Shown in pieces: positions 1 to 61,690 of a stretch of 64,000 nt of DNA. The stretch lies in assembly GCA_051294905.1 (NCBI GenBank), contig CM119372.1, positions 28,398,001 through 28,462,000 of the forward strand. Reading direction: 5' to 3'. The notes under the pieces are model-generated. The model saw only the letters and a program-made list of their open reading frames with translations, was not told the origin of the DNA and made no database searches. Numbering within the stretch: position 1 is the first letter of the stretch; each line of letters opens with the position of its first letter. This DNA is from Botryllus schlosseri (taxonomy: Eukaryota). The translations under genes were made by a program, and so were the position numbers.

Positions 1-2170
1 CGGTTAACCACATACAATATACTCTTGTACACAGAAATGTATGTTTCGGAAAATTGGACAATAGGCTTCGATAGTTCTGTGATGTCCGGGTTCGTGCTTT
101 GGATTTTCCAGAGTCAAAATGTCTGAATAAAACACCTCCTCGACGATGGTTGGTATGTGGATAACGGTGTTCGGAAAACGGTTGGATTTATGTCACCAAT
201 CGCGATGACAATTCCAGGTCGAGTTTTCCCCCGCATGTTTACTATATTGTGTCTTTATTGGTCAATGTATGTCTCGACATTCAGTTTGAAATCGGAAACC
301 CTGATAAAGTATGTAACCGGATCCGGATATCAACTCTGAATCGCTGAACCAATGAACAATATTCAAAGTAAACATGTTACACCCTGTGTTTCCACGAAAA
401 TATACCATCCAGACATACGTCGCGCTTGTTTACCCACAACAGTATACGCGTAAATGGAGGTGTGTGACATTGCATGCAATGTGTTGGTATACAAACATCG
501 GGGAGTAAGCCTTCGATCCACAGACATTATCATAGCCGGTAGTTTTAATGTAGATCGAATGTCATCACACCTGATAACAATGTCATACCAATAAGCCACA
601 TTGCAATGACTCTGAGTCAATCTGAAGCAGGACATACAGACACCGTTCACTGATTTACTCGATTGTTTTATCGCGTTGTAACATTACAAGATAGTCATGA
701 CCCTATCTCCGGACAGACGTCCCAGATCAATTGGATACATGGGTCAATATCCATCGTGTTGTCGAGACCGAAGTTTTCTGCTGAGACTGCAGCGTTTCAC
801 CAATGTGAACTATCGAAGTACGGTGCTCGAAATGATTGTGATCAGTCTTTCAGACACGATGCGAGGATGTCGCTACTCCCACATAACGACTCCAGATAAA
901 TATCGTGAACAGTGATTCTGAAAATCTCGGACTGATACTGTGATCCAATAAGGTATGTTTCTGTGGAATGAAGACTGCAATCGTACACCACAATAGAACA
1001 CTACCTCGCGATTTCACACACAATCATAAAACACATCATCGTAAGGGTCCAGTTCGTCCGGCAACATTTCGAAACGGTCATCGCCACAAGAGATCGGGTT
1101 GGTCTCGTCGTATCGGTAGCATTTTGACACTGTCATCACCACAAGGCTATTGACGTCGTTTCGGTTGGTCATGTCAATCCGTTTTACAATTTACCGTTTT
1201 TCAACTCCCCGCACCATACTGTTACGACACAGACAAGAAGCGTCGGTGGAAATGATAAAACACGGAAGGCACACTTTGGTGTTATTTGATATGGATTTTA
1301 CACCAGACGAACCTCACATTCGAGCGATGCATTTGAATGGTGATTGTATTATTGATGTCCAAGGAAAAGAAATGTATCGATTTATCGGTTTCGTACATAT
1401 TCAACAAAAACCTGGGTATATGATTGTGCACGGTTCGCATATTTGACTGTGATCACAATATTGGTATGTGCTGTACAGTTCACTTTCACTGTCGTGCGAA
1501 TAACCCATGTTACGGTTCCATGTTTGTGTGTCTGTATGTCCTGCTTCAGATTGACTCAGAGTCATTGCAATGTGGCTTATTGGTATGACATTGTTATCAG
1601 GTGTGATGACATTCGATCTACATTAAAACTACCGGCTATGATAATGTCTGTGGATCGAAGGCTTACTCCCCGATGTTTGTATACCAACACATTGCATGCA
1701 ATGTCACACACCTCCATTTACGCGTATACTGTTGTGGGTAAACAAGCGCGACGTATGTCTGGATGGTATATTTTCGTGGAAACACAGGGTGTAACATGTT
1801 TACTTTGAATATTGTTCATTGGTTCAGCGATTCAGAGTTGATATCCGGATCCGGTTACATACTTTATCAGGGTTTCCGATTTCAAACTGAATGTCGAGAC
1901 ATACATTGACCAATAAAGACACAATATAGTAAACATGCGGGGGAAAACTCGACCTGGAATTGTCATCGCGATTGGTGACATAAATCCAACCGTTTTCCGA
2001 ACACCGTTATCCACATACCAACCATCGTCGAGGAGGTGTTTTATTCAGACATTTTGACTCTGGAAAATCCAAAGCACGAACCCGGACATCACAGAACTAT
2101 CGAAGCCTATTGTCCAATTTTCCGAAACATACATTTCTGTGTACAAGAGTATATTGTATGTGGTTAACCG
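1..2170. repeat. Inverted repeat, copy 1: left arm 1-643 (truncated by window), spacer 644-1527, matching right arm 1528-2170
   Basis: 1-643 is the reverse complement of 1528-2170. Mirror ORFs: 157..339+ and 1832..2014-. Confidence 0.97.
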
Positions 2171-2309
2171 ATGATATTGATGTGATACGCCTGATGGAGG
2201 TATACTCTGTAACCGGTAGTCCGTGTATGTTTCCGTCACTGTTCGTTGTAATCTATTTCAAACTATCGTCAATACAACAAATACCAAATTGTCAGGTGCG
2301 TTTGTCAGA

Positions 2310-3040
2310 TTTCAAAATGAAAATGGTTTTGTTACTCTAGGAAAAGCTAGATGACCAAGAGAAAATTTATTGTTACACTAGGTAAACGCCGGATCTCCAA
2401 AGGAAAATGATATTTTTACTAAGGTAAACGACGACCCACCAAGTGAAAATGGTTTGTTGCTCAGGGAAAAAATATATTTCCAAGTGAAAAAGGTTTGTTA
2501 CCCAGAGAAAAAATATATTTCCAAGTGAAAAAGGTTTGTTACCCAGAGAAAAAATATATTTCCAAGTGAAAAAGGTTTGGTACCAAGAGAAAAAATATAT
2601 TTCCAAGTGAAAAAGGTTTGTTACCAAGAGAAAAAATATATTTCCAAGTGAAAAAGGTTTGTTACCAAGAGAAAAAATATATTTCCAAGTGAAAAAGGTT
2701 TGTTGCTCAGGGAAAAAATATATTTCCAAGTAAAAATGGTCTGTTGCTCAAGGAAAAAATATATTTCCAAGTGAAAATGATCTGTTGCTCAAGGAAAAAA
2801 TATATTTCCTAGCGAAAAAAGGTTTGTTACCCGGGGGGAAAAATATATTTGCAAGTGAAAAAGGTTTGTTACCCGGGGAAAAATAGATTTCCAAAGGAAA
2901 GGGGGTTTGTTACTCTTGGAAACGATAGACCCCCAAGTGAAAATGTTTTGTTACTCTGATTAAACGATAAATCTCCAAAGAATAATGGTATTTTTACTCA
3001 GGTAACGACTGACCTCCAGGTGAAAATGGTAATTTTACTT
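2310..3040 (+). repeat. 41-bp tandem array (CCAAGTGAAAAAGGTTTGTTACCCAGAGAAAAAATATATTT), degenerate at the edges
   Basis: Units start at 2480, 2521, 2562 and onward. Confidence 0.95.
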
Positions 3041-5281
3041 GGGTAGGTATCGTATGTTTAGTGTCGTTGGTGTTGTTAAAAGTAGCTGTCGAGCTGTACA
3101 ATATGCTTGTCGTGAGTCTACAATTACGAAGGGAGAGAATGAAATTGCTATTATGAGTGCCAGAAGGTTGTTGTATGTAGATTTGACAGTAACCCTATCA
3201 TTCGCATATGACAAACACAATCATGACCATTAACTAACTTGCTCGGTCTCGATCAATGCAAAAGAGATGATGAGTTTTTTGAAACCGTAGCGAAGAGCAC
3301 ATGTAAATCTATGCGATAGACTTCTATCTCCTTACATTCAGTCGTGTCGTGTCCATTTTAATACGGATCCCACATGTATGACATGCACACACTAACGCCG
3401 TAAACAGAAGTCGATGATTTTGATTAATAAAAATATTTCTTGACTACATCGGAATGTCTATGTTGTAGAAAGTAAATACTTTTATGGTGTTGTGTGTTTA
3501 ATGAAAGCGATTGGTTACAAGTATGTTTTGGCGGAATAAAATTTATTTTTCTGTATGTGACGAAATGAAAATAGATTCGTGGTTTTAATTGAATTGTGAC
3601 TGTGTTGTTTTAATGTACGTTTCAACAGGTAGACTTGACACTGAACAACAATTCGACCCACAAAACATATTCGTTGTATGATTTGTCACTGGTGTGTAAA
3701 GGGTTAGGAATATTTTGAATGATAATATCTACTAGCTGTTTTGTTGTGAGGGCGATCATGTGATGACTCAGCACTTTTCGTTAGCAAAGTAGATTGATCT
3801 ATGTGAAAGATGTAAGGACCGTGGCTAGAAACATATGTACTTTCTTGTTGGAGTAGCTGATTTACTGCTATGGTATTGACATAACCCTCTGGAAGTGAGT
3901 ATGCTTTTCTTCACGAAAGTTTACGTGGCTCCGTTGTAATAAATTTGTGTTAACTAAACTCGGATGGATACCACAATTGCGCTGGACTTACACATGGGAT
4001 TCGCATACTGTACACATACAAACTTTTGTGTAAACAACTCTGTGATGTTTCTGTTAGTACTAGTTCTAGTTCTGTGTTGAATTATTTGATTATTAAGATA
4101 CATGAACACCCATTCAGACAATAAAGGTCTTGTGATATCGAAACAGTTTGTAGAGTCTAACCAACCATTCTTTAGTTTCGTAATGCGAGAATATCGAGTA
4201 AAGTTAATTACTTAGTGCGATGTTAATATACTTCGTACTTTTGTAAGAGTTGTGGGGTAACATACAAAGTACCTAATTGACACAAACAAAATATTGAATG
4301 AAGGTTCGTCTGTTGTTTTCATAAGTCAAGAGAGTGGAAATTGTTGTTGTTGTTTTTGATACACTAAATCGAAATAGTGTGAAAGCGTCACCAATCATTG
4401 CGTATGTTCGTAGCATGGAATATCGAATATTTTCGTGTACCATGAATATCTTTCATATGTCTTCGGTAAGAAATGAGTTATTTGGGATAATAATTAGTGT
4501 CCTACAGTAAAACTTGTTGTGTTTGATTGCATACTTTTTTATCATTGTTTGTTGTTGAAAGACGGGCGAGTTTACATTTAAATATAGTAAGCAGAACAAC
4601 TCAAGTAATAAATTTTACTCGTTTGAAAATCGACAACGGAAAAAATACCGATGAATGGGGTAACACTATCAATATTAGCGGTATATTATTTTTCGCGGTA
4701 TGTACCAATATTCTAAGCATAACTTGTCAAAAATTTATCATGTCATAGAAAAGTAGTCGGTTGTTATGAATTCGAAACAAATGTACTTTGATTATCACGA
4801 TGATGGAAATTACGATCAACACAGTATTTCGTAAGTGAATGTGTATCGCTTGGTATGTTCAGCAGTCACTAAATGACAAAAATAGCAAACTGATGCAACC
4901 CAGTAGTTAAACGATACAGTTACAAGTTGGATGTAATCTTGATTTACAGATGACAGCTTGATGAGTATTGTGATGACATTTACTTTAGCGAATGATAACG
5001 GAAAAATTTTCGGTTGCATTGTCGGTGTATGTGTTAGACAAATAATTCTAGTACACCTAACTATAGGATACATTTGGCAAACATCGTACAAATTGTTTCG
5101 TTGTGCTGGTAACGACTTTCGGCGGTTTGGTTTCATGTCGGGAATTATTATTTGGGGGTTCAAAAACAATCAATACTACAAATGAACAACAATACAAAAC
5201 ACGTTAAGTGAATTACAGTGTAGCAAGTACTTCCTCGATATTACGATTGTTGTGTAACAGACATTTGTAACTGAATTGAAT

Positions 5282-5381
5282 NNNNNNNNNNNNNNNNNNN
5301 NNNNNNNNNNNNNNNNNNNNNNNNNNNNNNNNNNNNNNNNNNNNNNNNNNNNNNNNNNNNNNNNNNNNNNNNNNNNNNNNN
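5282..5381. other. Assembly gap (100 N)
   Basis: Run of N. Confidence 1.
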
Positions 5382-6445
5382 CATGTATCTTAATAATCAA
5401 ATAATTCAACACAGAACTAGAACTAGTACTAACAGAAACATCACAGAGTTGTTTACACAAAAGTTTGTATGTGTACAGTATGCGAATACCATGTGTAAGT
5501 CCAGCGCAATTGTGGTATCCATCCGAGTTTAGTTAACACAAATTTATTACAACGGAGCCACGTAAACTTTCGTGAAGAAAAGCATACTCACTTCCAGAGG
5601 GTTATGTCAATACCATAGCAGTAAATCAGCTACTCCAACAAGAAAGTACATATGTTTCTAGCCACGGTCCTTACATCTTTCACATAGATCAATCTACTTT
5701 GCTAACGAAAAGTGCTGAGTCATCACATGATCGCCCTCACAACAAAACAGCTAGTAGATATTATCATTCAAAATATTCCTAACCCTTTACACACCAGTGA
5801 CAAATCATACAACGAATATGTTTTGTGGGTCGAATTGTTGTTCAGTGTCAAGTCTACCTGTTGAAACGTACATTAAAACAACACAGTCACAATTCAATTA
5901 AAACCACGAATCTATTTTCATTTCGTCACATACAGAAAAATAAATTTTATTCCGCCAAAACATACTTGTAACCAATCGCTTTCATTAAACACACAACACC
6001 ATAAAAGTATTTACTTTCTACAACATAGACATTCCGATGTAGTCAAGAAATATTTTTATTAATCAAAATCATCGACTTCTGTTTACGGCGTTAGTGTGTG
6101 CATGTCATACATGTGGGATCCGTATTAAAATGGACACGACACGACTGAATGTAAGGAGATAGAAGTCTATCGCATAGATTTACATGTGCTCTTCGCTACG
6201 GTTTCAAAAAACTCATCATCTCTTTTGCATTGATCGAGACCGAGCAAGTTAGTTAATGGTCATGATTGTGTTTGTCATATGCGAATGATAGGGTTACTGT
6301 CAAATCTACATACAACAACCTTCTGGCACTCATAATAGCAATTTCATTCTCTCCCTTCGTAATTGTAGACTCACGACAAGCATATTGTACAGCTCGACAG
6401 CTACTTTTAACAACACCAACGACACTAAACATACGATACCTACCC

Positions 6446-7176
6446 AAGTAAAATTACCATTTTCACCTGGAGGTCAGTCGTTACCTGAGTAAAAATACCA
6501 TTATTCTTTGGAGATTTATCGTTTAATCAGAGTAACAAAACATTTTCACTTGGGGGTCTATCGTTTCCAAGAGTAACAAACCCCCTTTCCTTTGGAAATC
6601 TATTTTTCCCCGGGTAACAAACCTTTTTCACTTGCAAATATATTTTTCCCCCCGGGTAACAAACCTTTTTTCGCTAGGAAATATATTTTTTCCTTGAGCA
6701 ACAGATCATTTTCACTTGGAAATATATTTTTTCCTTGAGCAACAGACCATTTTTACTTGGAAATATATTTTTTCCCTGAGCAACAAACCTTTTTCACTTG
6801 GAAATATATTTTTTCTCTTGGTAACAAACCTTTTTCACTTGGAAATATATTTTTTCTCTTGGTAACAAACCTTTTTCACTTGGAAATATATTTTTTCTCT
6901 TGGTACCAAACCTTTTTCACTTGGAAATATATTTTTTCTCTGGGTAACAAACCTTTTTCACTTGGAAATATATTTTTTCTCTGGGTAACAAACCTTTTTC
7001 ACTTGGAAATATATTTTTTCCCTGAGCAACAAACCATTTTCACTTGGTGGGTCGTCGTTTACCTTAGTAAAAATATCATTTTCCTTTGGAGATCCGGCGT
7101 TTACCTAGTGTAACAATAAATTTTCTCTTGGTCATCTAGCTTTTCCTAGAGTAACAAAACCATTTTCATTTTGAAA
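6446..7176 (-). repeat. 41-bp tandem array, inverted copy
   Basis: Reverse complement of the array at 9625-10355. Confidence 0.95.
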
Positions 7177-7315
7177 TCTGACAAACGCACCTGACAATTT
7201 GGTATTTGTTGTATTGACGATAGTTTGAAATAGATTACAACGAACAGTGACGGAAACATACACGGACTACCGGTTACAGAGTATACCTCCATCAGGCGTA
7301 TCACATCAATATCAT

Positions 7316-10300
7316 CGGTTAACCACATACAATATACTCTTGTACACAGAAATGTATGTTTCGGAAAATTGGACAATAGGCTTCGATAGTTCTGTGATGT
7401 CCGGGTTCGTGCTTTGGATTTTCCAGAGTCAAAATGTCTGAATAAAACACCTCCTCGACGATGGTTGGTATGTGGATAACGGTGTTCGGAAAACGGTTGG
7501 ATTTATGTCACCAATCGCGATGACAATTCCAGGTCGAGTTTTCCCCCGCATGTTTACTATATTGTGTCTTTATTGGTCAATGTATGTCTCGACATTCAGT
7601 TTGAAATCGGAAACCCTGATAAAGTATGTAACCGGATCCGGATATCAACTCTGAATCGCTGAACCAATGAACAATATTCAAAGTAAACATGTTACACCCT
7701 GTGTTTCCACGAAAATATACCATCCAGACATACGTCGCGCTTGTTTACCCACAACAGTATACGCGTAAATGGAGGTGTGTGACATTGCATGCAATGTGTT
7801 GGTATACAAACATCGGGGAGTAAGCCTTCGATCCACAGACATTATCATAGCCGGTAGTTTTAATGTAGATCGAATGTCATCACACCTGATAACAATGTCA
7901 TACCAATAAGCCACATTGCAATGACTCTGAGTCAATCTGAAGCAGGACATACAGACACCGTTCACTGATTTACTCGATTGTTTTATCGCGTTGTAACATT
8001 ACAAGATAGTCATGACCCTATCTCCGGACAGACGTCCCAGATCAATTGGATACATGGGTCAATATCCATCGTGTTGTCGAGACCGAAGTTTTCTGCTGAG
8101 ACTGCAGCGTTTCACCAATGTGAACTATCGAAGTACGGTGCTCGAAATGATTGTGATCAGTCTTTCAGACACGATGCGAGGATGTCGCTACTCCCACATA
8201 ACGACTCCAGATAAATATCGTGAACAGTGATTCTGAAAATCTCGGACTGATACTGTGATCCAATAAGGTATGTTTCTGTGGAATGAAGACTGCAATCGTA
8301 CACCACAATAGAACACTACCTCGCGATTTCACACACAATCATAAAACACATCATCGTAAGGGTCCAGTTCGTCCGGCAACATTTCGAAACGGTCATCGCC
8401 ACAAGAGATCGGGTTGGTCTCGTCGTATCGGTAGCATTTTGACACTGTCATCACCACAAGGCTATTGACGTCGTTTCGGTTGGTCATGTCAATCCGTTTT
8501 ACAATTTACCGTTTTTCAACTCCCCGCACCATACTGTTACGACACAGACAAGAAGCGTCGGTGGAAATGATAAAACACGGAAGGCACACTTTGGTGTTAT
8601 TTGATATGGATTTTACACCAGACGAACCTCACATTCGAGCGATGCATTTGAATGGTGATTGTATTATTGATGTCCAAGGAAAAGAAATGTATCGATTTAT
8701 CGGTTTCGTACATATTCAACAAAAACCTGGGTATATGATTGTGCACGGTTCGCATATTTGACTGTGATCACAATATTGGTATGTGCTGTACAGTTCACTT
8801 TCACTGTCGTGCGAATAACCCATGTTACGGTTCCATGTTTGTGTGTCTGTATGTCCTGCTTCAGATTGACTCAGAGTCATTGCAATGTGGCTTATTGGTA
8901 TGACATTGTTATCAGGTGTGATGACATTCGATCTACATTAAAACTACCGGCTATGATAATGTCTGTGGATCGAAGGCTTACTCCCCGATGTTTGTATACC
9001 AACACATTGCATGCAATGTCACACACCTCCATTTACGCGTATACTGTTGTGGGTAAACAAGCGCGACGTATGTCTGGATGGTATATTTTCGTGGAAACAC
9101 AGGGTGTAACATGTTTACTTTGAATATTGTTCATTGGTTCAGCGATTCAGAGTTGATATCCGGATCCGGTTACATACTTTATCAGGGTTTCCGATTTCAA
9201 ACTGAATGTCGAGACATACATTGACCAATAAAGACACAATATAGTAAACATGCGGGGGAAAACTCGACCTGGAATTGTCATCGCGATTGGTGACATAAAT
9301 CCAACCGTTTTCCGAACACCGTTATCCACATACCAACCATCGTCGAGGAGGTGTTTTATTCAGACATTTTGACTCTGGAAAATCCAAAGCACGAACCCGG
9401 ACATCACAGAACTATCGAAGCCTATTGTCCAATTTTCCGAAACATACATTTCTGTGTACAAGAGTATATTGTATGTGGTTAACCGATGATATTGATGTGA
9501 TACGCCTGATGGAGGTATACTCTGTAACCGGTAGTCCGTGTATGTTTCCGTCACTGTTCGTTGTAATCTATTTCAAACTATCGTCAATACAACAAATACC
9601 AAATTGTCAGGTGCGTTTGTCAGATTTCAAAATGAAAATGGTTTTGTTACTCTAGGAAAAGCTAGATGACCAAGAGAAAATTTATTGTTACACTAGGTAA
9701 ACGCCGGATCTCCAAAGGAAAATGATATTTTTACTAAGGTAAACGACGACCCACCAAGTGAAAATGGTTTGTTGCTCAGGGAAAAAATATATTTCCAAGT
9801 GAAAAAGGTTTGTTACCCAGAGAAAAAATATATTTCCAAGTGAAAAAGGTTTGTTACCCAGAGAAAAAATATATTTCCAAGTGAAAAAGGTTTGGTACCA
9901 AGAGAAAAAATATATTTCCAAGTGAAAAAGGTTTGTTACCAAGAGAAAAAATATATTTCCAAGTGAAAAAGGTTTGTTACCAAGAGAAAAAATATATTTC
10001 CAAGTGAAAAAGGTTTGTTGCTCAGGGAAAAAATATATTTCCAAGTAAAAATGGTCTGTTGCTCAAGGAAAAAATATATTTCCAAGTGAAAATGATCTGT
10101 TGCTCAAGGAAAAAATATATTTCCTAGCGAAAAAAGGTTTGTTACCCGGGGGGAAAAATATATTTGCAAGTGAAAAAGGTTTGTTACCCGGGGAAAAATA
10201 GATTTCCAAAGGAAAGGGGGTTTGTTACTCTTGGAAACGATAGACCCCCAAGTGAAAATGTTTTGTTACTCTGATTAAACGATAAATCTCCAAAGAATAA

Positions 10301-12596
10301 TGGTATTTTTACTCAGGTAACGACTGACCTCCAGGTGAAAATGGTAATTTTACTTGGGTAGGTATCGTATGTTTAGTGTCGTTGGTGTTGTTAAAAGTAG
10401 CTGTCGAGCTGTACAATATGCTTGTCGTGAGTCTACAATTACGAAGGGAGAGAATGAAATTGCTATTATGAGTGCCAGAAGGTTGTTGTATGTAGATTTG
10501 ACAGTAACCCTATCATTCGCATATGACAAACACAATCATGACCATTAACTAACTTGCTCGGTCTCGATCAATGCAAAAGAGATGATGAGTTTTTTGAAAC
10601 CGTAGCGAAGAGCACATGTAAATCTATGCGATAGACTTCTATCTCCTTACATTCAGTCGTGTCGTGTCCATTTTAATACGGATCCCACATGTATGACATG
10701 CACACACTAACGCCGTAAACAGAAGTCGATGATTTTGATTAATAAAAATATTTCTTGACTACATCGGAATGTCTATGTTGTAGAAAGTAAATACTTTTAT
10801 GGTGTTGTGTGTTTAATGAAAGCGATTGGTTACAAGTATGTTTTGGCGGAATAAAATTTATTTTTCTGTATGTGACGAAATGAAAATAGATTCGTGGTTT
10901 TAATTGAATTGTGACTGTGTTGTTTTAATGTACGTTTCAACAGGTAGACTTGACACTGAACAACAATTCGACCCACAAAACATATTCGTTGTATGATTTG
11001 TCACTGGTGTGTAAAGGGTTAGGAATATTTTGAATGATAATATCTACTAGCTGTTTTGTTGTGAGGGCGATCATGTGATGACTCAGCACTTTTCGTTAGC
11101 AAAGTAGATTGATCTATGTGAAAGATGTAAGGACCGTGGCTAGAAACATATGTACTTTCTTGTTGGAGTAGCTGATTTACTGCTATGGTATTGACATAAC
11201 CCTCTGGAAGTGAGTATGCTTTTCTTCACGAAAGTTTACGTGGCTCCGTTGTAATAAATTTGTGTTAACTAAACTCGGATGGATACCACAATTGCGCTGG
11301 ACTTACACATGGGATTCGCATACTGTACACATACAAACTTTTGTGTAAACAACTCTGTGATGTTTCTGTTAGTACTAGTTCTAGTTCTGTGTTGAATTAT
11401 TTGATTATTAAGATACATGAACACCCATTCAGACAATAAAGGTCTTGTGATATCGAAACAGTTTGTAGAGTCTAACCAACCATTCTTTAGTTTCGTAATG
11501 CGAGAATATCGAGTAAAGTTAATTACTTAGTGCGATGTTAATATACTTCGTACTTTTGTAAGAGTTGTGGGGTAACATACAAAGTACCTAATTGACACAA
11601 ACAAAATATTGAATGAAGGTTCGTCTGTTGTTTTCATAAGTCAAGAGAGTGGAAATTGTTGTTGTTGTTTTTGATACACTAAATCGAAATAGTGTGAAAG
11701 CGTCACCAATCATTGCGTATGTTCGTAGCATGGAATATCGAATATTTTCGTGTACCATGAATATCTTTCATATGTCTTCGGTAAGAAATGAGTTATTTGG
11801 GATAATAATTAGTGTCCTACAGTAAAACTTGTTGTGTTTGATTGCATACTTTTTTATCATTGTTTGTTGTTGAAAGACGGGCGAGTTTACATTTAAATAT
11901 AGTAAGCAGAACAACTCAAGTAATAAATTTTACTCGTTTGAAAATCGACAACGGAAAAAATACCGATGAATGGGGTAACACTATCAATATTAGCGGTATA
12001 TTATTTTTCGCGGTATGTACCAATATTCTAAGCATAACTTGTCAAAAATTTATCATGTCATAGAAAAGTAGTCGGTTGTTATGAATTCGAAACAAATGTA
12101 CTTTGATTATCACGATGATGGAAATTACGATCAACACAGTATTTCGTAAGTGAATGTGTATCGCTTGGTATGTTCAGCAGTCACTAAATGACAAAAATAG
12201 CAAACTGATGCAACCCAGTAGTTAAACGATACAGTTACAAGTTGGATGTAATCTTGATTTACAGATGACAGCTTGATGAGTATTGTGATGACATTTACTT
12301 TAGCGAATGATAACGGAAAAATTTTCGGTTGCATTGTCGGTGTATGTGTTAGACAAATAATTCTAGTACACCTAACTATAGGATACATTTGGCAAACATC
12401 GTACAAATTGTTTCGTTGTGCTGGTAACGACTTTCGGCGGTTTGGTTTCATGTCGGGAATTATTATTTGGGGGTTCAAAAACAATCAATACTACAAATGA
12501 ACAACAATACAAAACACGTTAAGTGAATTACAGTGTAGCAAGTACTTCCTCGATATTACGATTGTTGTGTAACAGACATTTGTAACTGAATTGAAT
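7316..12596 (+). repeat. Direct duplicate of 1-5281 (offset 7315)
   Basis: Identical ORFs at a constant 7315 offset. The first copy ends exactly at the gap. Confidence 0.97.
9625..10355 (+). repeat. 41-bp tandem array
   Basis: Same as 2310-3040. Confidence 0.95.
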
Positions 12597-24700: not shown

Positions 24701-25126
24701 AGTATGTTCAATGTTCATGATAATAACTCATTAATTTCTGGAAAACGTCGGTTAACATTCTTTCAATAATTAAGGAACGGGATACTTGAAACATGATTTC
24801 TGACTTCTCAGAAGCTGTCGTTATACTTCGTCAGTTGGTTTGAAGTGATATGCAGATACTTTTAGCTATACTCCAAACTTGTCCAAGGTTAAATTCGTCA
24901 TTATACGATGTTCATATTCTTCAAGACTACGGACCATAAACATAGTTTACTGCCTGCATTTTTTACACAGTGGACTATGCCGGTCCTACGTTACACTTGA
25001 ACGGGGTAGCCTAAACAATATACACGGTGTCACTTATTTCATTTATCCCTCTAACGTGTAGACAACTTCATTGTTTTATCACGCATACCCACAAGAGATT
25101 TGAATCAGATAGGCCTAACTGATGAT

Positions 25127-26551
25127 ATGAGGGGACTAGTACTTGCAACGTTTCTTGTGCTGGCTATGGTGACATCGAGTCATGCATGGTTTCACGTTCA
25201 CCTTCACAATTGTTGGTAAGATTTATCAACACATATATATGGCTTGTATAATTGATCTAAATTGCTTGATAAATTGCTTGATAAATTGATCTCATTGCTC
25301 TAAACGCCTAGGACAGTGGTTCTCAAAATTTTTTGGACACGCCCCCCATTATGATAGAGAAAAATTTCGCGCCCCCCCTTATCGTCATATCACAAAATGC
25401 AACGAGAATGCTGGTAATCCCAACGGATAGTTTGATGGCATGGGAGGTTATGACTGTTGATGAGAGAGTTCTAAAATATGAAATTAGGACAGTACACACA
25501 GCAATAACTATGAATTAGAGGTAAATCGCGCCGAGTGCGAAAATTTTTCAAGTTCGCAGCTTCGCCCCTCCCCTCTTCAGATGCTTTCACGCGCCCCAAT
25601 GGGGCGCGCCTTCCAGTTTGAGAACCACTGGCCTAGGCTACTCTATTACATATAGCACATATACGTCACCATCAATATTGGTCGGTCGTTTAAATTCACT
25701 AACGACCTGCCCCACGTTCCGACATAACCTGTATGCGTCATGCGATCGCAAGATCGACCGGAATTTTCAAGCAAAATCCCGATGCGCTTTGTCTCGCTTC
25801 GTTTACTCTGTTTCCTTATAAGGGCGGGTAAGATTGAACCAACTTTCCGCACTTACGATTTCGATTATTATTGATACATCATTACTTTACTCGAGTCACA
25901 GTGGTTCGTGACATTGTCCAAATACGTTTTCGATTTCCCGGTGCCATTAATGTCCACATCATTATCCAGCGTTACTGTTTGCTTACTTTGTAGGGATGAA
26001 GCCGGAGAGCCCGGCGAGCATGAAAAGTCCGAAGAGCACGGGCGTGAATGGCATGAAGATGTTCATGAGCACCTGAACCCTGCGCGTAGAAAGTAAGATT
26101 TAGCGATATCTAAATATATAATTTGTAGACGATTGTATGCATTGTGTCTGTCGAAACATGTCGTACATTATCATGAATGCCTGATCTACTCCACACAAAA
26201 GATAGACGTCACCGTCAATGTTGTTTGGTAGATTAGGTCACTGACGACCAACCCTCGCGTTCGGAGGTAACGTATAAGCGCATGCGGGTAGAACATAAGA
26301 TGAAAACAAAATGAGAAGGGCTCTGTAACATAATATTTGCCTCGCTCTACTATTGGGATGTAATAGATTGTCTTACCTCTTCCTCCTCCTCCATTTCGTG
26401 ACATTGACAAAATACTTTTGCGCTTCCAGATGACAATGTGCGCACCTCATTTACGAGGGTCAATGTTTGCTTACTTTGTAGAGATGAAGAGGGAAAGCCC
26501 GAGGAGCACGAACATGAAACGAATGAAGATATTACAGGTATCATTGCATAA
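25127..26551 (+). CDS. Secreted His-rich peptide precursor A (85 aa). Exons 25127-25215, 25994-26092, 26482-26551: MRGLVLATFLVLAMVTSSHA-WFHVHLHNCW-DEAGEPGEHEKSEEHGREWHEDVHEHLNPARRK-DEEGKPEEHEHETNEDITGIIA
   Basis: Signal-peptide-like N-terminus. GTAAG donors and TACTTTGTAG acceptors, both introns phase 2 and in frame. Structure conserved in paralog B. The 3' end is less certain: exon 2 could stop at AAG TAA, or exon 3 could splice at 26538. Confidence 0.8.
25314..25630. mobile_element. hAT (Charlie-like) MITE in intron 1 of gene A
   Basis: TIR CAGTGGTTCTCAAA...TTTGAGAACCACTG; TSD GCCTAGGA/GCCTAGGC; absent from paralog B. Confidence 0.9.
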
Positions 26552-29211
26552 TGTTGCTATTGCAAAGCCACCATTCTCGCTTTAACCTACTCACAGCCCT
26601 GATAAAGGATATCGTCCAGCAACAACGTAACGACGGGAATGCGGCAAACTACTTTCCGTAGGAAGAATGCTATCTCAATTGAATATTTGAAACATGCGCA
26701 ATCAGCGGCCGTGATTAAGAAAAGCAAAATATATCACATCATTCAAAGCAGCGTTAGGCTATATATTTGACTTTGAACTTTGGATTTTCTATGAAGGATT
26801 TAAAAATTTCTGCAATGGTTATGTCGATTTTGACCATTAGGCTAGATTACAGCACTACCCGCTCGGTGCAGATACCGATTGCAGATTTGGCGTAACATAG
26901 CCCGATCACAGGACGTGCGAGTTCTAGGCTCATTGGCCTTATATAAAATATATACGATTGCTTCGCGAATTCTCAATTTTTCAGTGTTCAGCTTCGTCGA
27001 AGAATATACTTGGCGAAAAAGTAGACGCTCTCATCTCCTGCAAGGAGGGTTCATAACGTAAATAAAATAGCAGTGTTATCCGAACCCTGTTCCGTAGGCT
27101 CCGCGGGCACGAGAGACAGCGACTCGAGTGGTTCTTCTCAGGGATATCTAGACTTCAGATATCTACTTTTCAATAATTATCTCTTGTTTGATAGTAGATG
27201 ACGAATATCTGCTGATAATATGGGAGTGCACCGCAAAGGATGGTGCGAGAGACAGATAGAGAGGCTGATACAGTTTTATTGAATAGTTTTGCAATCGAAA
27301 TTATATTACAAGGTGAAGCGACACGATCCAGTCAGCTGCATTGGTGGAGTACAACAGCGTTTATGCTATATTAAATCGAGTGTTGCGTCATGACTAAATT
27401 GAGAACAGATCGAACGGTGGGAGGTTGCAACATCAACAGAGTAACAGGCAACAATATTAAACTAAGCAACGAAATACTTAAATTCAATAAATATATATAC
27501 AAGTCTGGAAAGGTTTGGTTCGTGTGAACACGAGCTTTACACAAAATGTCCTCTCTCAGCATGAACGTAAACACAAACCAATAACATCACGTCATATTGC
27601 CGATTACAAACTCTGTGTACATTTATATTTAGCAGGTGGAAAAAGTAGTTACCTATAATTAATATATAATATAATATAATCGCAACAACAGTGACGTTCA
27701 GTAACATCACAGTCAGTTAATATAAAAGATCGATGAGGGCACTTGAGCTACACCTACATTAACAATCCCTGTCTACATCAAAGTATAGGCCTACTGCATA
27801 TTTACACACACATGTACCTGGGTGTCTACATGAATGCTCATTTGCATAGATAAATTTTAATCTTTGATCCCGCTTGACGGAATTAGCAAAGAAATGGATT
27901 TGCTTTATTAGTTCGGTATGACTTCTATTGCAAAGCGCTTCTGTATTTTCGTCCAAGCTGCTGTTTGAATAAAATACTGCCGCTGTAGTAGTCATTATTC
28001 AGAGTACGCATGAAGTAGTAAGCAATTGGAATGTTGTCACTCATGGCGACGCTACTTCAAATACACTTGAGGTCACTTTAACACCGTCAGGTCCGAGCTT
28101 TCGCACCCATTTTGCAGTATGGTTCGGAAATCTTCGCATTGTAAAAACTATTTTCCACCGGCGTCCAGCGACCAACCTAGACCATTTTTGATCTCATCTC
28201 ACATAGATAACTCAAAAGCGTCATTCTGTTATCTACATCCATAATAATATAGTGATATGTCCAGTAGAATTTCGACAATGAGCATAATTCATAACGTCAC
28301 GAGGTTTATCATAATTTAAAAGTCCAACGGCTACCAGGATTACTTTGTGAACTTCACAATCGACAGAAAGCTGAATGATTTCAGAGCCAAAAATCATTGG
28401 ACCAGTATATTTAAATCCATCATGGATTGGAAAATTCTCTAATAGATTTGGAATGCAAATCATATCGTCTGTTGGTCACTGTTTCTTATGTGTGCAGTGC
28501 AATCTCAGGTCGTTTTCAACAGAAAATATCGTTTGTCTGCACCACATAAGGCGATGCAGTAGCCTACCTGACACAAAACAGAGTAGGCCTAGTATAAGGT
28601 AGCAATTGCCATACGTCCGGATTTTGCCGGACATGTCCGCAATTTTGGTGTTTAAACTGCGTCCGGGAGGAAATGAAATTCTCCCATCTTTTTCTAGGTA
28701 ATGAACATTTTGAGCTCGCCAAAGTTATATACCTTAAACATGTCTGCAACTCGTTTACTATCTTTTACAAGGAACAGCAATAGGGTTTGGCTTAATCTAG
28801 TTCAGGGTTTCCTAAGCTATGAGACGTGGAAGTGAGAAGCAAAGTGTTTGAAGACAAGGCGCTACGAACTAGAAACACAACTACTGCACCCCAACCCCCC
28901 CAATTAATCATATGATATCGAATAACGTGGAATGCATTTTCACAGTCATCACCTTCACGATCTCTACAGCCAACTCTGGTCGCATGGGTGGAGAGAGGAT
29001 AATAATTTAACAGTGATTTACAGAAGAACCAATAGTATTGACAGAATTCATCCGAATGTCTGTAGTAACCACGTAAGCGAATGAAAAAGTAGCTAAATAT
29101 TGCGTTCGCTTTATTCCGGCTCGTTGGTGAATCACCAAATCCTGGGGATCGTGCAAACCCCTTAAAGGATCTGGTTCATGTCAACGCGAACTTTTTGGAA
29201 AGGTTCTGTGT

Positions 29212-49445: not shown

Positions 49446-50155
49446 ATAGGACTATAGGAGAGTGTTGAAATGACCAAGTAGCCTACGTTGTGTCAATCCC
49501 AGATCCAACTCGGCCTACATCCCGGCCCGCCAAGTACTACATTCTTCTATGTCCAACCCGCCGACTGAAGAAGTTGCCAGCCCCTGCCATAAAACCTACG
49601 GGTCAGGGCTCAGACAACACTGGTATTTTGTTATGTTATGTACCCTCCTTGCCAGCGATGGAAGCATTTATAGTCTATACTCTTTCACCCATTATATTCT
49701 TCAGCGAAGCTGAACACTGCAAAATTGTGCATCCACGAAGCAATTATATTTATATATACGGACAGCAAGCCTTGAATTTGCACGCGTGCTACTATTATCG
49801 GGCGATGTCAAGTCAAATCTACATTTACTACGAGTCAGTATTTGCACTGAATCTGTGCTGCTGTACTGCAACCTAATGGTCGAAATCGACAAGATCCATT
49901 TCATAAATTTTGAAGTCTTTCATAGAAAACACGAAGTTAAAAGGCAAATATATTACGGTGCTTTGAATTATGTCATATATTTTTTCTTTTCCTAATCACG
50001 TCCGATGATTGCGCATGTTTCAAATAATCAATTGAGACAGCATTCTTCCTACTGAAAGTAGTTTGCCGCATTCCTGTCGTTACGTTGTTGCTGGATGATA
50101 TCTCTCAGCAGGGCTGTGAACAGGTTAAAGCGAAAATGGTGGCTTTGCATTATCT

Positions 50156-53100
50156 TTAGGAGCATTGTGAGATAATACCTGTGATATCTTCATGCCTCTG
50201 ATGTTTGTATTGCTCGGGCTTCCCCTCCTCATCCCTACAAAGTACACAAACATTAACTTTATCGAAGAGGTAGACACAATAGCATCTGGAATGCGCATGA
50301 CTATTTTGTCAATGTCACGGACTTGGGTAAAGTGATAATGTCTTAATGATCAAAATCATGAGTTTCAGAGAGGAGGTAGAACATTATCTTTCAGCCTGAT
50401 AACATAATCAAGCTATAATATGTCACAGAGCCGTTTTTGCATTCGACTTCTGTTCTACCAGCATGCGCTCATGTTACCTCGGAACGCGAGGGTTTGTCGG
50501 TAGTGACCTAAGCTACGAAACAATATTGACAGTGACGTATATCTTGTAGGGCCGAGCATGGACCGGAGCCGGATTGGATACCCTGCCGGATTTTCTCACT
50601 TTTTGGCCGGAGCTGGTCGGAGCCGGATCAGTACTTTTTCTGATGCGCCCGGAGTCGGATCGAAGCCGGATCAGTACTTATTACTACGGCTGGGCACAAT
50701 GATTCGAGTACTCGAATCTGAATCGAGTAATTATTTTCATGATTCGAGTCGAGTAGCAAAAGACGATTTTTTCGAGTACTGAAATTATACGCTCCTCGCT
50801 ACTGAAAGTTATGTTATCAACGAGAATTATGGTTTTGATACTATTTTCCACTGCGGAAGCCTTGGAACCTTGATTTGCCGTATCGGAGCATACGGAACAT
50901 AGGGCAAAGCTACTAAGGTTACTGAAAAAAAACATTTCCGAAGTCATGATTCTCCCACGACATTGTCACAAAGTGCAATGAAAGCGGTAGGGTCGGAGAA
51001 ATACCGAAGTATCTTCAATGTGATGGATATCAGGCAAAATATTCTTTGCGGGGGCATAAAAGGTACATATTCGAACTTTGACATACTACATTTTGCTGTG
51101 ACGTCATAATGTGTGATACTCGAATACTCGACTCGACTCGAAGCATAATACGTGATTCAGAATCGAATCACTCAGGTATTCGATTTTGCCCAGCCCTACT
51201 TATTACATAGAATAGGGCAGCCTTATTCTCTTCAACCCTCGAACTAATATCTACGGTGAAACGATCATGGAAATAAACCACATGCTAAGTTCAAGTTGGC
51301 ATAATTACTTAAGACAAGGGTTAGCCTGATCTTGGAGTTTTTAATTTCCTGTTTGCATTGTTTCAATCAATATCCAATAACTATCCGGTGAGTGCATGAT
51401 TATTATTGAAGTTTATCGGATCACGGTCATTTTTAAAATCCGTCCTAGGAGTCGGACCGGAGTAGGACCAGAGCTTTGAAAATAGGATCGGAGTAGGACC
51501 AGAAAATTTGTCGATCCGCTCCGCACTAATATCTGTGTGTAGAATAGATTAGGTAGGGTTACCAAATTTCGAGATCCGTAAATGACACGTTTCAGAGGCT
51601 ACAACAGTTACTACAGCGCAGTGTTGGGATCAAGTCACTACCTTCGAGTCACGAGTCATTTCGAGTCATTGCACATTTTAACTCGAGTCAAGTCAAGTCA
51701 ATCGATTTTCAAAGGTGACTCGAGTCAAGTCAAGTCACTCGATTTTTGGAGGTGACTCGAGTCAAGTCGAGTCAAGTCAAGTCAAGTCACGAGTCAAGTC
51801 ACATTTCAAGTCAAGTTGCCTTTTCGAAGTATGTATGAGGCATGATTTACGTCATTGCAATTTGCTAGCTGTCTGAAATACAGTTTGAGTGTGTATTGAT
51901 TCCGAACGGATGACCGAATATAGAGTTAATTATACACACACGAAGGCGCTGTACCACTCACATATACGTAGAACTGTTAAACTACGTAATTGCATAGCCA
52001 CAGTTTATAGTTACCAGCCGGAATAGAGAATGGAGAAACGAATTGATAAGATTCTATACATTACCCATTTACAAGTAGATATGATACAATTCGAGCCTGC
52101 GCCAATGGCTGAGGACTAAACTATATTCGAAGTCAATTTCAATAAAACAATTTCTTTAGTTAAGGTAAGAACAGATAACGGAAATATACATTTTGCGATT
52201 TTATTACTTTACTACTAGAATTACAACAGCGTAAGCTGTAAGCTTCGATCACTTCGTTTGCGGTCAATTTACTTGTGAGAGAACAATCGAGGCTCGGTGA
52301 AACGCACGATCATTGAATGATTGGTCGCTCTCACGGGTTACACCAGCGTTTTGCGAACAATCCGAACATATGCAAGATACAGTGATTTTTAACGACACCG
52401 ATTAGTTGATGACTTGAAATTGACTCGTGAATTTTGCTCCGAGTCACGAGTCAATCCACATTTCTGATACGCCGAGTCAAGTCAAGTCGAGTCATTTTAG
52501 CAAAGTGACTCGAGTCAAGTCAAGTCATGCGAAAAAGGTGACTCGAGTCTGACTCGAGTCAAGTCATGACTCGAGTCATCCCAACACTACTACAGCGAAC
52601 GAAAAAACGAGTGATTTTCGAATCAATATAGCTGATGCCGTTGGCATGACTGAAAAATAGGTCGTTTTTTCGGCTGGACTAAGATTTGCCAGTATATAGC
52701 TTATATGACGCGGGTTGACTAAAAATGAAACGAGAGGTCCTATTTCGAACTTGACTCTCGAAATACCCGTCTGTCGTCAATATGATCCACATTTTGCGTA
52801 ATTCGTGGTCTGTTGTGGTATTTTAAGATAGAAAGTTGGTCGAATTGCCAAAAAGTAAGACATTCGGGTGACGGGAAGACATCTCTTGAAAAAGGAAGGC
52901 AAATCCTCCTAAAGGAGGACGTATGATATCCCTAGATTAGGCATTCAGGATAATATACGAGATGCTTCGAGAGATACAATCCATGCACTCGTATAATTCA
53001 TATATATATATATATTATTGAATCTTACTTCGTACGTGGAAGGTTCAGGTGTGCATGAACATCTTCATGCCATTCACGCCCATGCTCCTCGGACTTTTCA

Positions 53101-53623
53101 TGCTCGCCGGGCTCTCCCTCTTCATCCCTACAAAGTAAGCAAACATTAACGCTGACAAATGATGTGGGCATCAATGACACCGGGAAATTGAAAAACTATT
53201 TTGCTCATGTCACGAACCACTGTGACTCAAGTAAAGTAATGGTGTCCTAATAAGAATCAAAATCGTAAGTGCGGAAAGTTAGGTCAATCTTCCTAGGCCT
53301 CATAAAGAAACGGATTTAATAAAGCGTCACAGAGCGACTCGTGATTTTGCTTGAAACTTCCGGTCGATCACACAATCGCATATAGGTTATGTCGGAACGT
53401 GGGGTCGGTCGATAGTGAATTTAAAAGACCGACTGATTTTGATGGCGAAGTATACGTGCTACATGCAATCGAGTATGCGTTTAGAGCTGTGCCCGAAAAG
53501 ATCAATAATACAAAATATATATATTGGTAAATCTTACCCACAATGAATGTGAACATGAAACCATGCATGGCTTGATGCCACCATAGCCAGCACCAGAAAC
53601 GTTGCAAGTACTAGTCGCCTCAT
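50156..53623 (-). CDS. Secreted His-rich peptide precursor B (87 aa). Exons 53623-53538, 53127-53029, 50234-50156: MRRLVLATFLVLAMVASSHA-WFHVHIHCG-DEEGEPGEHEKSEEHGREWHEDVHAHLNLPRTK-DEEGKPEQYKHQRHEDITGIISQCS
   Basis: Same exon structure, phases and splice sites as gene A. Frame intact despite substitutions and a one-codon indel. Confidence 0.8.
50547..51528. mobile_element. TIR element (CCGGA repeats) containing a nested MITE at 50685-51198
   Basis: Outer TAGGGCCGAGC...GCTCCGCACTA, TSD ATATCTTG/ATATCTGT. Inner TACGGCTGGGCA...TGCCCAGCCCTA, perfect TSD CTTATTAC. Confidence 0.8.
51554..52934. mobile_element. Blackjack-like hAT MITE hosting MITE copy 5
   Basis: TAGGGTTACCA...TGATATCCCTA flanked by AGATTAGG; similar to 16115-16458. 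Confidence 0.75.
51619..52589 (-). mobile_element. CAGTGTTGGGAT MITE, copy 5
   Basis: TIRs (last base mutated); TSD CTACAGCG. Confidence 0.95.
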
Positions 53624-59698: not shown

Positions 59699-59814
59699 AC
59701 TGTACTTGTACATTAAGATAGCCGCCACATACGTTCCGTGACTTTGACGAAATACTTTTGCGCATTCCAGATTCCCTTTAGTCCACCTCTTTGGGAGGGT
59801 AATGTTTGTTGTAG

Positions 59815-59884
59815 AGATGAAGAGGGAAATCCCGAGGAGCACGAATATGAGAGGCATGATGATATTAGACGTATTATTTCATAA
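59815..59884 (+). pseudogene. Orphan exon 3 of a third peptide-precursor paralog (DEEGNPEEHEYERHDDIRRIIS*), with homologous 3' flank to ~60465
   Basis: Homologous to 26482-27135; shortened acceptor; no plus-strand exons 1-2 seen nearby. Confidence 0.75.
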
Positions 59885-61690
59885 TGTTCCTAAGGATAAT
59901 GCAAAGCCAGCATTTTCGCCTCGACCTATCCACAAACCTGCTGAGGGATATTGTCCAGTAACAACGTAAGGACGGGAATGCGGCAAACTGCTTTCAGTAG
60001 GAAGAATACAATCTCAGTTGAAAATATTTGAAACAGGCGCATTACGCAATCATCGGTCGTGATTAGGAAAAGCAAAATATATCACATCATTCATAGAGGC
60101 GTGATTTATTTGCGTTGCAACCTGGGTTTTCAGTGAAGGACTGAAAAAATTCTGAAATGGGAATGTCGATATCGACCTTTCGGCTATATTACAGCTGTAC
60201 AGGTTCGGTACAGACTCCAGATATGGACTCGTAGCCACGTAGATTTGACGTTACATCATGGCTCATTATTCTTAATTAGAAATATGCGATTGCTTCGCGG
60301 ATTCCCAATTTTTCAGTGTTTAATTTCGTTAACGAATATATCTTGGTGAAAAGTAAATGCTTTCATCGCTTGCAAGGAGGGTTCATAACATAACAAAATA
60401 CCTGTGTTGTCCGAACCATGACCGGTAGGCTCCATAGGCTTGAGAGATTACGATTCGAGAGGTTCTTTCGAATCACAATTACAAGTGTCGGGCTCCCCCT
60501 GTCTTGCGCCCCTGTTCTTACGGCGTCTTTACAAGTAGGCTCAGACGAAGACTCGCCGAAGAACGAATAAGAAAATGTATTAAGCAGGAAAAGAAAGAGT
60601 CGTGATCATGATCGAACGATATTTCATCGGACAATAATACTAGTACAACCAATAGGCCGAGTGACATCTGAGATTGATAGAACGCAGGCTACTTGTTCAT
60701 TTCAACATTTTCCTATCTGTTTATTACATCGCATTCTGTTGTGGGTAGGCCTATTACATTGAACTTTGTTGATTTCGATTGGATCAAAATAATCGAAGAC
60801 TGGAAATGATGATGGTGATATCATTGTCCCGAAGATTAGCAGCTTATAATAAAGCTATTGCGTATTCGATATATAAACAATACAACGAATGCCCGTGCAG
60901 TGTGTTTTGGTTGTCGGATAGATCCGTTTACCAATGGCTTTTGGATGCTATTAAGTGATAAATGGTTCCGCTTTTGACCTGAAAATGTGCACAACGTTCA
61001 GCAACTAACCTATTCAAAGCGTCCCGCGTTTCCAATATTCGCATTTCTTCAATGGGTAGTGGGTGCATTATTCATACAATGACCCTGTGGGGCTCAAATT
61101 GCTGGTTAAAGACTATTTGGACCCGGTAGTTTCAGCGCCCGATGACATCAATATCGATAGTTTTGGCCATTCTGCGAGAAATTTTGGGGCAAGGTTTCGT
61201 CGACGCTGACTCTTTGACAGCAAACTTCACGGAGAAGTATGAAATGATCTTGATTTGGAGTCAGATTACCAAGTCCCTGAATATTCTACTTCGCGAGGCA
61301 TTCTGAGCCCCTCAAGCTGTTATTATTCGATTCCTTCTTCATTAGGGTTTTGGATCTGGTTAATTCCATTATCAGCGTGATCGCGAACGAAATAGCTACT
61401 GCATGCGAATAACTGTCATCATTATGACCTTGACACCGATGGGCAATGTATCATCGCTGCTATGCAGAAATTCAGAAATTTATCCAGTAAATATCAGTTG
61501 TGTGATAGTAGCTGGGGCCGCCACAAAGAAAAATACCTCCTTATAAGATAGGTTTGAAATAGGGATGGTGCGCACTGCGCACACTGACCGACAGAGAGGT
61601 AGAGACAGTTTTGCTGAATAGAATTGCAATCAAAAGATAATACAAGGTGCGGCAATACGATCCTCAGGGACTCCCACGGATCATCTAGTC

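Follow-up and report, generated by a model that had tools for sequence, protein, structure and literature searches.

The biosynthesis of plicatamide, the tunichromes, and related modified short peptides of ascidian blood cells is still unexplained. A paper giving the structure of plicatamide calls the synthesis of the peptide unexplored (PMC3039461), and a 2023 review places the tunichromes under unidentified pathways (PMC10880069). The locus described here raises the question of whether peptides of this kind may be cut from a ribosomally made precursor. It lies in a 64-kb window, the whole stretch of DNA analyzed, which is animal DNA of about 39% G+C at chromosome positions 28,398,001–28,462,000. 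An initial annotation of the window had proposed a spliced gene in which a signal peptide is followed by a short core with alternating His and then by an acidic follower. The sequence and the RNA joints bear out this layout, the signal peptide being a prediction, and show that the gene is expressed. It belongs to an expressed family that puts a plicatamide-like heptad directly behind the predicted signal peptide and of which single-exon searches found no member in either of two large protein libraries. The origin of plicatamide is now testable, and the family is a possible first genetic lead to such peptides.

Exon Structure and Transcription of Gene A

Gene A begins with an ATG at 25127, and translation of its frame gives a hydrophobic 20-residue leader ending in SSHA, followed by WFHVHLHNC. 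The layout of the gene is as follows.

25127..25215, plus strand: exon 1; ATG, 20-aa signal peptide, WFHVHLHNC, and the first 2 bases of a Trp codon; donor GTAAGA
25306..25638, no strand assigned: MITE-like element in intron 1; 333 bp, with 22-nt terminal inverted repeats that are 95% complementary
25994..26092, plus strand: exon 2; acidic and His/Glu-rich, beginning with DEAGEPGEHEK and ending with a second H-x-H motif and a basic RRK
26482..26537, plus strand: exon 3; a shortened copy of the exon-2-type acidic, His-rich unit, with RNA joints on both sides
26597..26661, plus strand: exon 4, coding part; 21 codons and a stop, present in all paralogs

The 3′ UTR extends past 26750. The initial annotation had described an 85-aa spliced ORF. 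Such an ORF can be built exactly as described, but exon 3 ends at 26537 rather than at a stop at 26551, and the fourth exon was missed; with exon 4, the product is 102 aa from four exons. Exons 2 and 3 are preceded by the same acceptor sequence, and when the acceptor region upstream of each is included, the two exons align at 77%.

Four RNA runs from the same organism were compared with positions 25050–26750 of the window: X1, X15, and X16, available as contigs, and X23, raw bulk RNA-seq. The labels of the three contig runs are themselves a guess; their origin from RNA is concluded from the spliced joints that the contigs carry. The joint 25215/25994 (GT..AG) is found in one contig each of X1 (916 nt) and X15 (593 nt), that is, in two of the four runs. 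The joint 26092/26482 (GT..AG) is found in X16 only, where it is weak, with a depth of 2.3 and 29 letters on its shorter side. Both of these junctions had been predicted beforehand. The joint 26537/26597 (GT..AG), which removes a 59-nt intron, is carried by contigs of X1, X15, and X16 (three of four runs). An unbroken 107-nt contig of X15 spans 26508–26611, and because it crosses intron 3, the 85-aa read-through form is attested, if perhaps only by unspliced RNA.

At position 26093, the G of the intron 2 donor, contigs of X1, X15, and X16, which stem from three different studies, have an A, and intron 2 is retained. Therefore, the product of that allele would stop right after the RRK of exon 2. 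The reference G may perhaps be the rarer allele.

In X23, 882 of 12.9 million reads matched the gene A region, 881 of them only in part and 653 at 95–99% likeness. These reads carry paralog letters, namely G at 25156 in 277 of 277 and C at 25180 in 142 of 144, and their depth is concentrated on exons 1, 3, and 4. The loose ends of the matches include a paralog exon-2 end joined to exon 3 (65 reads) and another exon-2 end joined to exon 3 (187 reads), the latter with a different H-x-H-x-H motif and absent from the assembly. Also absent from the assembly is a family form, seen in 52 reads, with a core that apparently ends in WK before the acidic part. Individuals seem to differ in the number of family copies or in the alleles that they carry. 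To summarize, there is clear evidence that the family is expressed, strongly in X23, and that its transcripts are spliced; the X23 reads come mostly from the paralogs of gene A, and it is the contigs that document gene A itself.

Intron 1 of gene A is 778 nt long, versus 410–425 nt in the paralogs, because the MITE-like element has inserted into it. In the interior of the element (25335–25505), contig depths summed over the three contig runs are 465–3658. The element is thus a highly abundant repeat, probably a transcribed one.

The Gene Family

The assembly searched comprises 495.5 Mb in 219 contigs. Searches with exon-1 DNA, with exon-3/4 DNA, and with the exon-1 and exon-2 peptides each find the same six intact genes, all at 28.42–28.73 Mb of one chromosome, and the exon-3/4 DNA search adds one decayed fragment. 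Gene A is thus a member of a family, as had been supposed. Two further family sequences lie in the window.

50049..53623, minus strand: gene B, intact paralog, 101 aa; exons 53623–53538, 53127–53029, 50234–50179, and 50113–50049; core WFHVHIHCG
59734..60140, plus strand: decayed third copy, exon 3/4 region only; 78% match to 26394–26798

Gene B is the paralog that the initial annotation had placed at 50156–53623. It is real and intact, but it is on the minus strand, it reaches 50049, and its core lacks the terminal Trp. Intron 2 of gene B (50235–53028) is 2794 nt long, versus 389–418 nt in the other five genes, and is filled by repeats, which include GAGTCAAGTC-type arrays and a number of inverted repeats. 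In the fragment at 59734–60140, the exon-4 acceptor AG has become AA, a TAA is in frame, and no exon 1 or 2 is found nearby.

All six genes retain an open frame, four exons (86–89, 99, 56, and 65 coding bases), and all three GT..AG pairs. The cores are WFHVHLHNCW in gene A, WFHVHIHCG in gene B, WFHVHFHIG in two genes, and WLHVHFHFG in the remaining two. Five of the six genes have Gly immediately ahead of the acidic part, and only gene A has Trp, the codons GGG and TGG being one base apart. This distribution does not favor the Trp as a site of modification, the role suggested for it initially. Past the core, every gene reads DE[A/E]GEPGEHEK. Exon 2 ends with the second H-x-H motif and then a basic site, RRK or SRR in five genes and RTK in gene B. 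The C-terminal part consists of the shorter acidic repeat of exon 3 and a 21-residue tail conserved in all six. The predicted mature proteins have a pI of 4.9–5.5, with 12–16% His and 24–27% Asp plus Glu.

In six pairwise comparisons of the four distinct genes, whole-CDS pN/pS is 0.25–0.46. The signal peptide is the best-conserved part, with 0–2 non-synonymous differences between genes. Comparison of the older paralogs shows no greater variability in the core than in exon 2 (pN of 0.09–0.18 versus 0.07–0.20). Four coding substitutions separate the two youngest gene types: two are non-synonymous, both in the 27-base (9-residue) core, and two are synonymous, in the other 279 bases. This pattern fits selection for core diversity in the young types, four substitutions being too small a number for proof.

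The four distal paralogs (28.495, 28.529, 28.627, and 28.732 Mb) are very young and form two near-identical pairs in alternating order. Within the pairs, 1 and 8 of 908 intron bases differ (under 1%), versus about 2% between the types. Either two genes were duplicated together very recently, as a segment, or the assembly contains a duplicated haplotype.

The conserved frame and splice sites, the pN/pS values, and the transcription show that the family is more than a set of chance ORFs, and the latter explanation was rejected on this conservation and RNA evidence. The six genes form a real, expressed, and apparently unannotated family of ascidian genes.

Host and Genomic Neighborhood

The host was placed by its cellulose synthases. 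At C9:15025585-15068854, two tandem multi-exon, cellulose-synthase-like genes bearing a GH6 domain lie about 43 kb apart. The best named relatives of the GH6-bearing protein are from Styela clava (70% identity), Molgula tectiformis (55%), and Ciona (51–53%), and all five named hits have cellulose-synthase domains. To our knowledge, the GH6 domain is found among animals only in tunicate cellulose synthases. Since the protein is nearest to that of Styela clava, the host is a stolidobranch ascidian related to Styela, near S. clava but distinct from it. The initial annotation would have read the likeness to plicatamide as convergence in a non-tunicate host lacking a Styela relative with the plicatamide core; the host found here is a tunicate.

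A Pfam search of 115 open frames within 104 kb (69 in the 64-kb window and 46 in the 20-kb flanks) found no modifying-enzyme gene and only transposon-related domains. Animal pathways need not be clustered. At 61934–63651, on the minus strand, three consecutive frames (207, 141, and 194 aa) resemble the remnant of a hAT-type transposase, and the 207-aa frame matches the hAT dimerization domain PF05699 with an E value of 3.8e-5. At the other end of the window (1–12500), there are two copies of a block of about 7.3 kb, with identical 150-aa frames at 1356 and 8671 and 124-aa frames at 2373 and 9688. The 124-aa frame occurs again, inverted, at 6739, and the block surrounds a 100-N gap at 5282–5381. 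The frames of this block have no Pfam match. The block may be a repeat or an assembly artifact.

Searches for Relatives

The queries of the protein libraries, Pfam, the ESM Atlas, and the metagenomes were single exons with 28–33 real residues and are weak tests of absence. A word-based search of 5.8 billion protein clusters found no usable relative of the exon-2 frame of gene A at lengths of 40–128 aa, nor, in the same clusters, of the paralog exon-2 frame at lengths of 78–2000 aa. An exon-2 HMM run against 1.84 billion representatives gave 0 hits at E ≤ 0.001. For eight exon pieces, no Pfam family scored above its cut-off, and there was one sub-threshold chance match. In the ESM Atlas, exon 2 was recognized poorly, and its top matches were bacterial clusters. 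In metagenome contigs, 598 pattern matches yielded 0 confirmed cases. Derivation of the FHVH stretch from Cu,Zn superoxide dismutase, whose copper-ligand strand has the same four residues, was rejected, as exon 1 has no Pfam hit.

Resemblance to Plicatamide

In all six genes, W-[F/L]-H-V-H-[F/L/I]-H stands directly behind the predicted signal peptide, the cleavage site being placed by the –3/–1 rule. Counting from this predicted N-terminus, plicatamide (FFHLHFH-) and the family share an aromatic residue, Phe or Leu, His, an aliphatic residue, His, a hydrophobic residue, and His, so that the predicted cores also share the X-X-His N-terminus of plicatamide. The WFHVHFHIG genes are identical to plicatamide at five of the first seven residues and conservative at the other two. 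The lengths are similar, as the family core before the acidic part has 8–10 residues and plicatamide is an octapeptide, and plicatamide comes from an ascidian, Styela, to which the family host is related. Judged from the sequences, the resemblance is real and specific, and a link to plicatamide is plausible.

There are also differences. Position 1 is Trp in the family and Phe in plicatamide. Position 8 is Ile in two genes, Phe in two, Cys in one, and Asn in one; Tyr, the DOPA precursor, is found in none of the six, and a decarboxylated dehydro-DOPA end is therefore impossible in the family. The initial annotation had looked ahead to a family member with the plicatamide core FFHLHFHY, and none is encoded here: the back-translated pattern has 0 matches in the 495.5-Mb assembly, a result that says nothing of the Styela plicata genome. 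The looser pattern FFH[L/F]HFH has three matches in the same assembly, all FFHFHFH and none behind a signal peptide.

The strongest form of the link would be that the family is the ribosomal source of plicatamide-type peptides and that S. plicata has orthologues with an FFHLHFHY core. Signal peptidase would set the N-terminus, a protease of unspecified kind would separate the core from the acidic follower, and the residue thereby left at the C-terminus would be modified, through amidation via Gly in the present family and through hydroxylation and oxidative decarboxylation of Tyr in S. plicata. We regard this proposal as doubtful. It is weakened by position 8 without Tyr, the Trp that is a novelty of one gene, the missing FFHLHFHY, a core junction without a known cleavage site (see below), the His motifs of the follower, and the 104 kb scanned, in which no modifying-enzyme gene was found. 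If true, it would establish a RiPP-like pathway in an animal and allow the origin of tunichrome-like compounds to be approached genetically. A literature search found no paper printing any of the family cores. The initial annotation left open whether such a precursor had been reported, and the accessible papers naming plicatamide, which are reviews or deal with unrelated topics, yielded none for plicatamide or the tunichromes; original or subscription papers might report a cDNA.

Proposed Function and Alternatives

Our tentative preference, which we would put somewhat below an even chance, is that gene A and its five paralogs encode precursors of a plicatamide-class defense peptide that binds metal and for which Gly possibly donates an amide. 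The genes would encode pre-pro-peptides of about 101 aa that the ascidian, a stolidobranch, would secrete or store in granules. Cleavage by signal peptidase after SSHA would expose W-[F/L]-H at a free N-terminus, a putative ATCUN copper/nickel site, and the V-H-x-H that comes next would continue the alternation of His and hydrophobic residues as in plicatamide. The core of 8–10 residues would then be freed from the strongly acidic, His-rich follower, with the Gly that ends the core in five genes possibly donating an amide. The free core may act as a pH- and metal-dependent, membrane-active defense peptide; up to its release, the acidic follower would hold it in a harmless or metal-loaded state. 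A further cut may be made where exons 2 and 3 meet, at the basic site that reads RRK or SRR in five genes and RTK in gene B.

This proposal is drawn from a family that is spliced, transcribed, and frame-conserved, from the two non-synonymous changes between the youngest types, both of which fall in the core, from the kinship of the host with Styela, and from the acidity of the follower. The signal peptide, judged by eye, obeys the –3/–1 rule (Ser, Ala). According to PMC2866484, the propiece from which an antimicrobial peptide is set free is usually anionic, and a signal peptide, a short hydrophobic, His-containing core, and an anionic remainder have this usual build, which supports the proposal. 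Counting against release of the core, no recognized cleavage site is present at the core–follower junction (G/DE or W/DE) in the six genes, and the residue at the junction is not fixed, being Gly in five genes, Trp in one, and apparently WK in the X23 form. Moreover, with its conserved H-x-H and HEHE motifs and its conserved tail, the follower looks like more than a disposable propiece.

The same observations bear on a second explanation, in which nothing is cut out and the product is an intact secreted metal-binding protein of about 81 residues, rich in His and Glu. Such a protein would buffer, carry, or withhold Cu, Ni, Zn, or Fe in blood, tunic, or granules through its W-F-H, H-x-H, and HEHE sites. 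Ascidians are known for unusual metal handling. The composition suits this explanation (His 12–16%, Asp plus Glu 24–27%, pI about 5), as do the recurrence of H-x-H in the core and at the end of exon 2, a second acidic His-rich unit in exon 3, a C-terminal tail conserved in all six genes, the lack of a standard cleavage site past the core, and the variable junction residues, which would fit a simple linker. However, the match in register between the N-terminus and a free ascidian octapeptide would then be a coincidence. In addition, the gene A transcripts in X1, X15, and X16 stop past exon 2, so that at least that allele can do without the second half of the protein, and the two youngest gene types differ at the protein level only in the core. 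We consider an intact metal-binding protein the main rival and a serious candidate, if one that we would not expect to prevail. Even if the peptide link fails, the family would still be of a new type, its products being small, predicted to be secreted, and very rich in His.

Precursors of signaling peptides of the hormone or neuropeptide type, cut at the basic site of the exon 2/3 boundary and amidated at Gly, would likewise carry a signal peptide, a site of two or three basic residues (RRK or SRR in five of six genes), and a Gly after the core (again in five of six). Here, though, the Gly is followed by Asp-Glu instead of basic residues, and gene B has only RTK. The extreme His/Glu content, the recent tandem expansion, and the fast evolution (pN/pS 0.25–0.46) are unusual for this class, and single-exon queries of the protein libraries found no relative in any other animal. 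A signaling role is therefore quite unlikely.

Finally, a young lineage-specific transcript family without a settled protein function, its likeness to plicatamide arising by chance, would account for the lack of homologues in every library searched with single exons, the gene-poor, transposon-rich region, the one decayed copy, and the splice donor lost in one gene A allele, but it is very improbable given a frame and all splice sites kept in six copies, pN/pS below 1 in all six pairwise comparisons, high read depth, a nearly invariant signal peptide, and an estimated probability of about 2 in 100 million per protein that the five fixed Phe/His matches would arise by chance at a set position.

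Comparison with Known Peptides

For the proposed defense-peptide precursors, two groups of antimicrobial peptides invite comparison. An ATCUN site needs a free α-amino group, His at position 3, and a residue other than Pro at position 2. W-F-H or W-L-H occupies positions 1–3 in all six genes, and it is an ATCUN site only if signal peptidase cuts before the Trp, as predicted. PMC8208971 describes ATCUN as X-X-H at a free N-terminus and reports its conservation among antimicrobial piscidins. Unlike the family products, these are fish peptides of 22 residues, cationic and helical. They share with the family X-X-His, bulky aromatic residues at positions 1 and 2, and further His residues, the N-terminus of the family being predicted and its metal site putative.

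The second group is closer in host. The clavanins, clavaspirin, and the styelins of Styela clava and botryllin of Botryllus are antimicrobial peptides of ascidian blood cells made as pre-pro-peptides, and the clavanins constitute PF05452. None of the eight exon pieces matches this profile, and the peptides of this group and the family have no sequence relationship. A six-frame search with PF05452 in the family's own genome also gave no match, short exons being able to escape such a search. Clavanin-type cores are longer, 23–37 residues versus 8–10 in the family, and the family differs in having a follower that is itself very His-rich. The likeness is one of build. Both clavanin-type precursors and the family have a signal peptide, a short active peptide (predicted in the present case), and a longer pro-part, and in both the peptides are rich in His and Phe, with a charge that depends on pH. 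In the clavanin precursor, the Gly used for amidation directly precedes the acidic C-terminal extension, as does the Gly in five of the six family genes.
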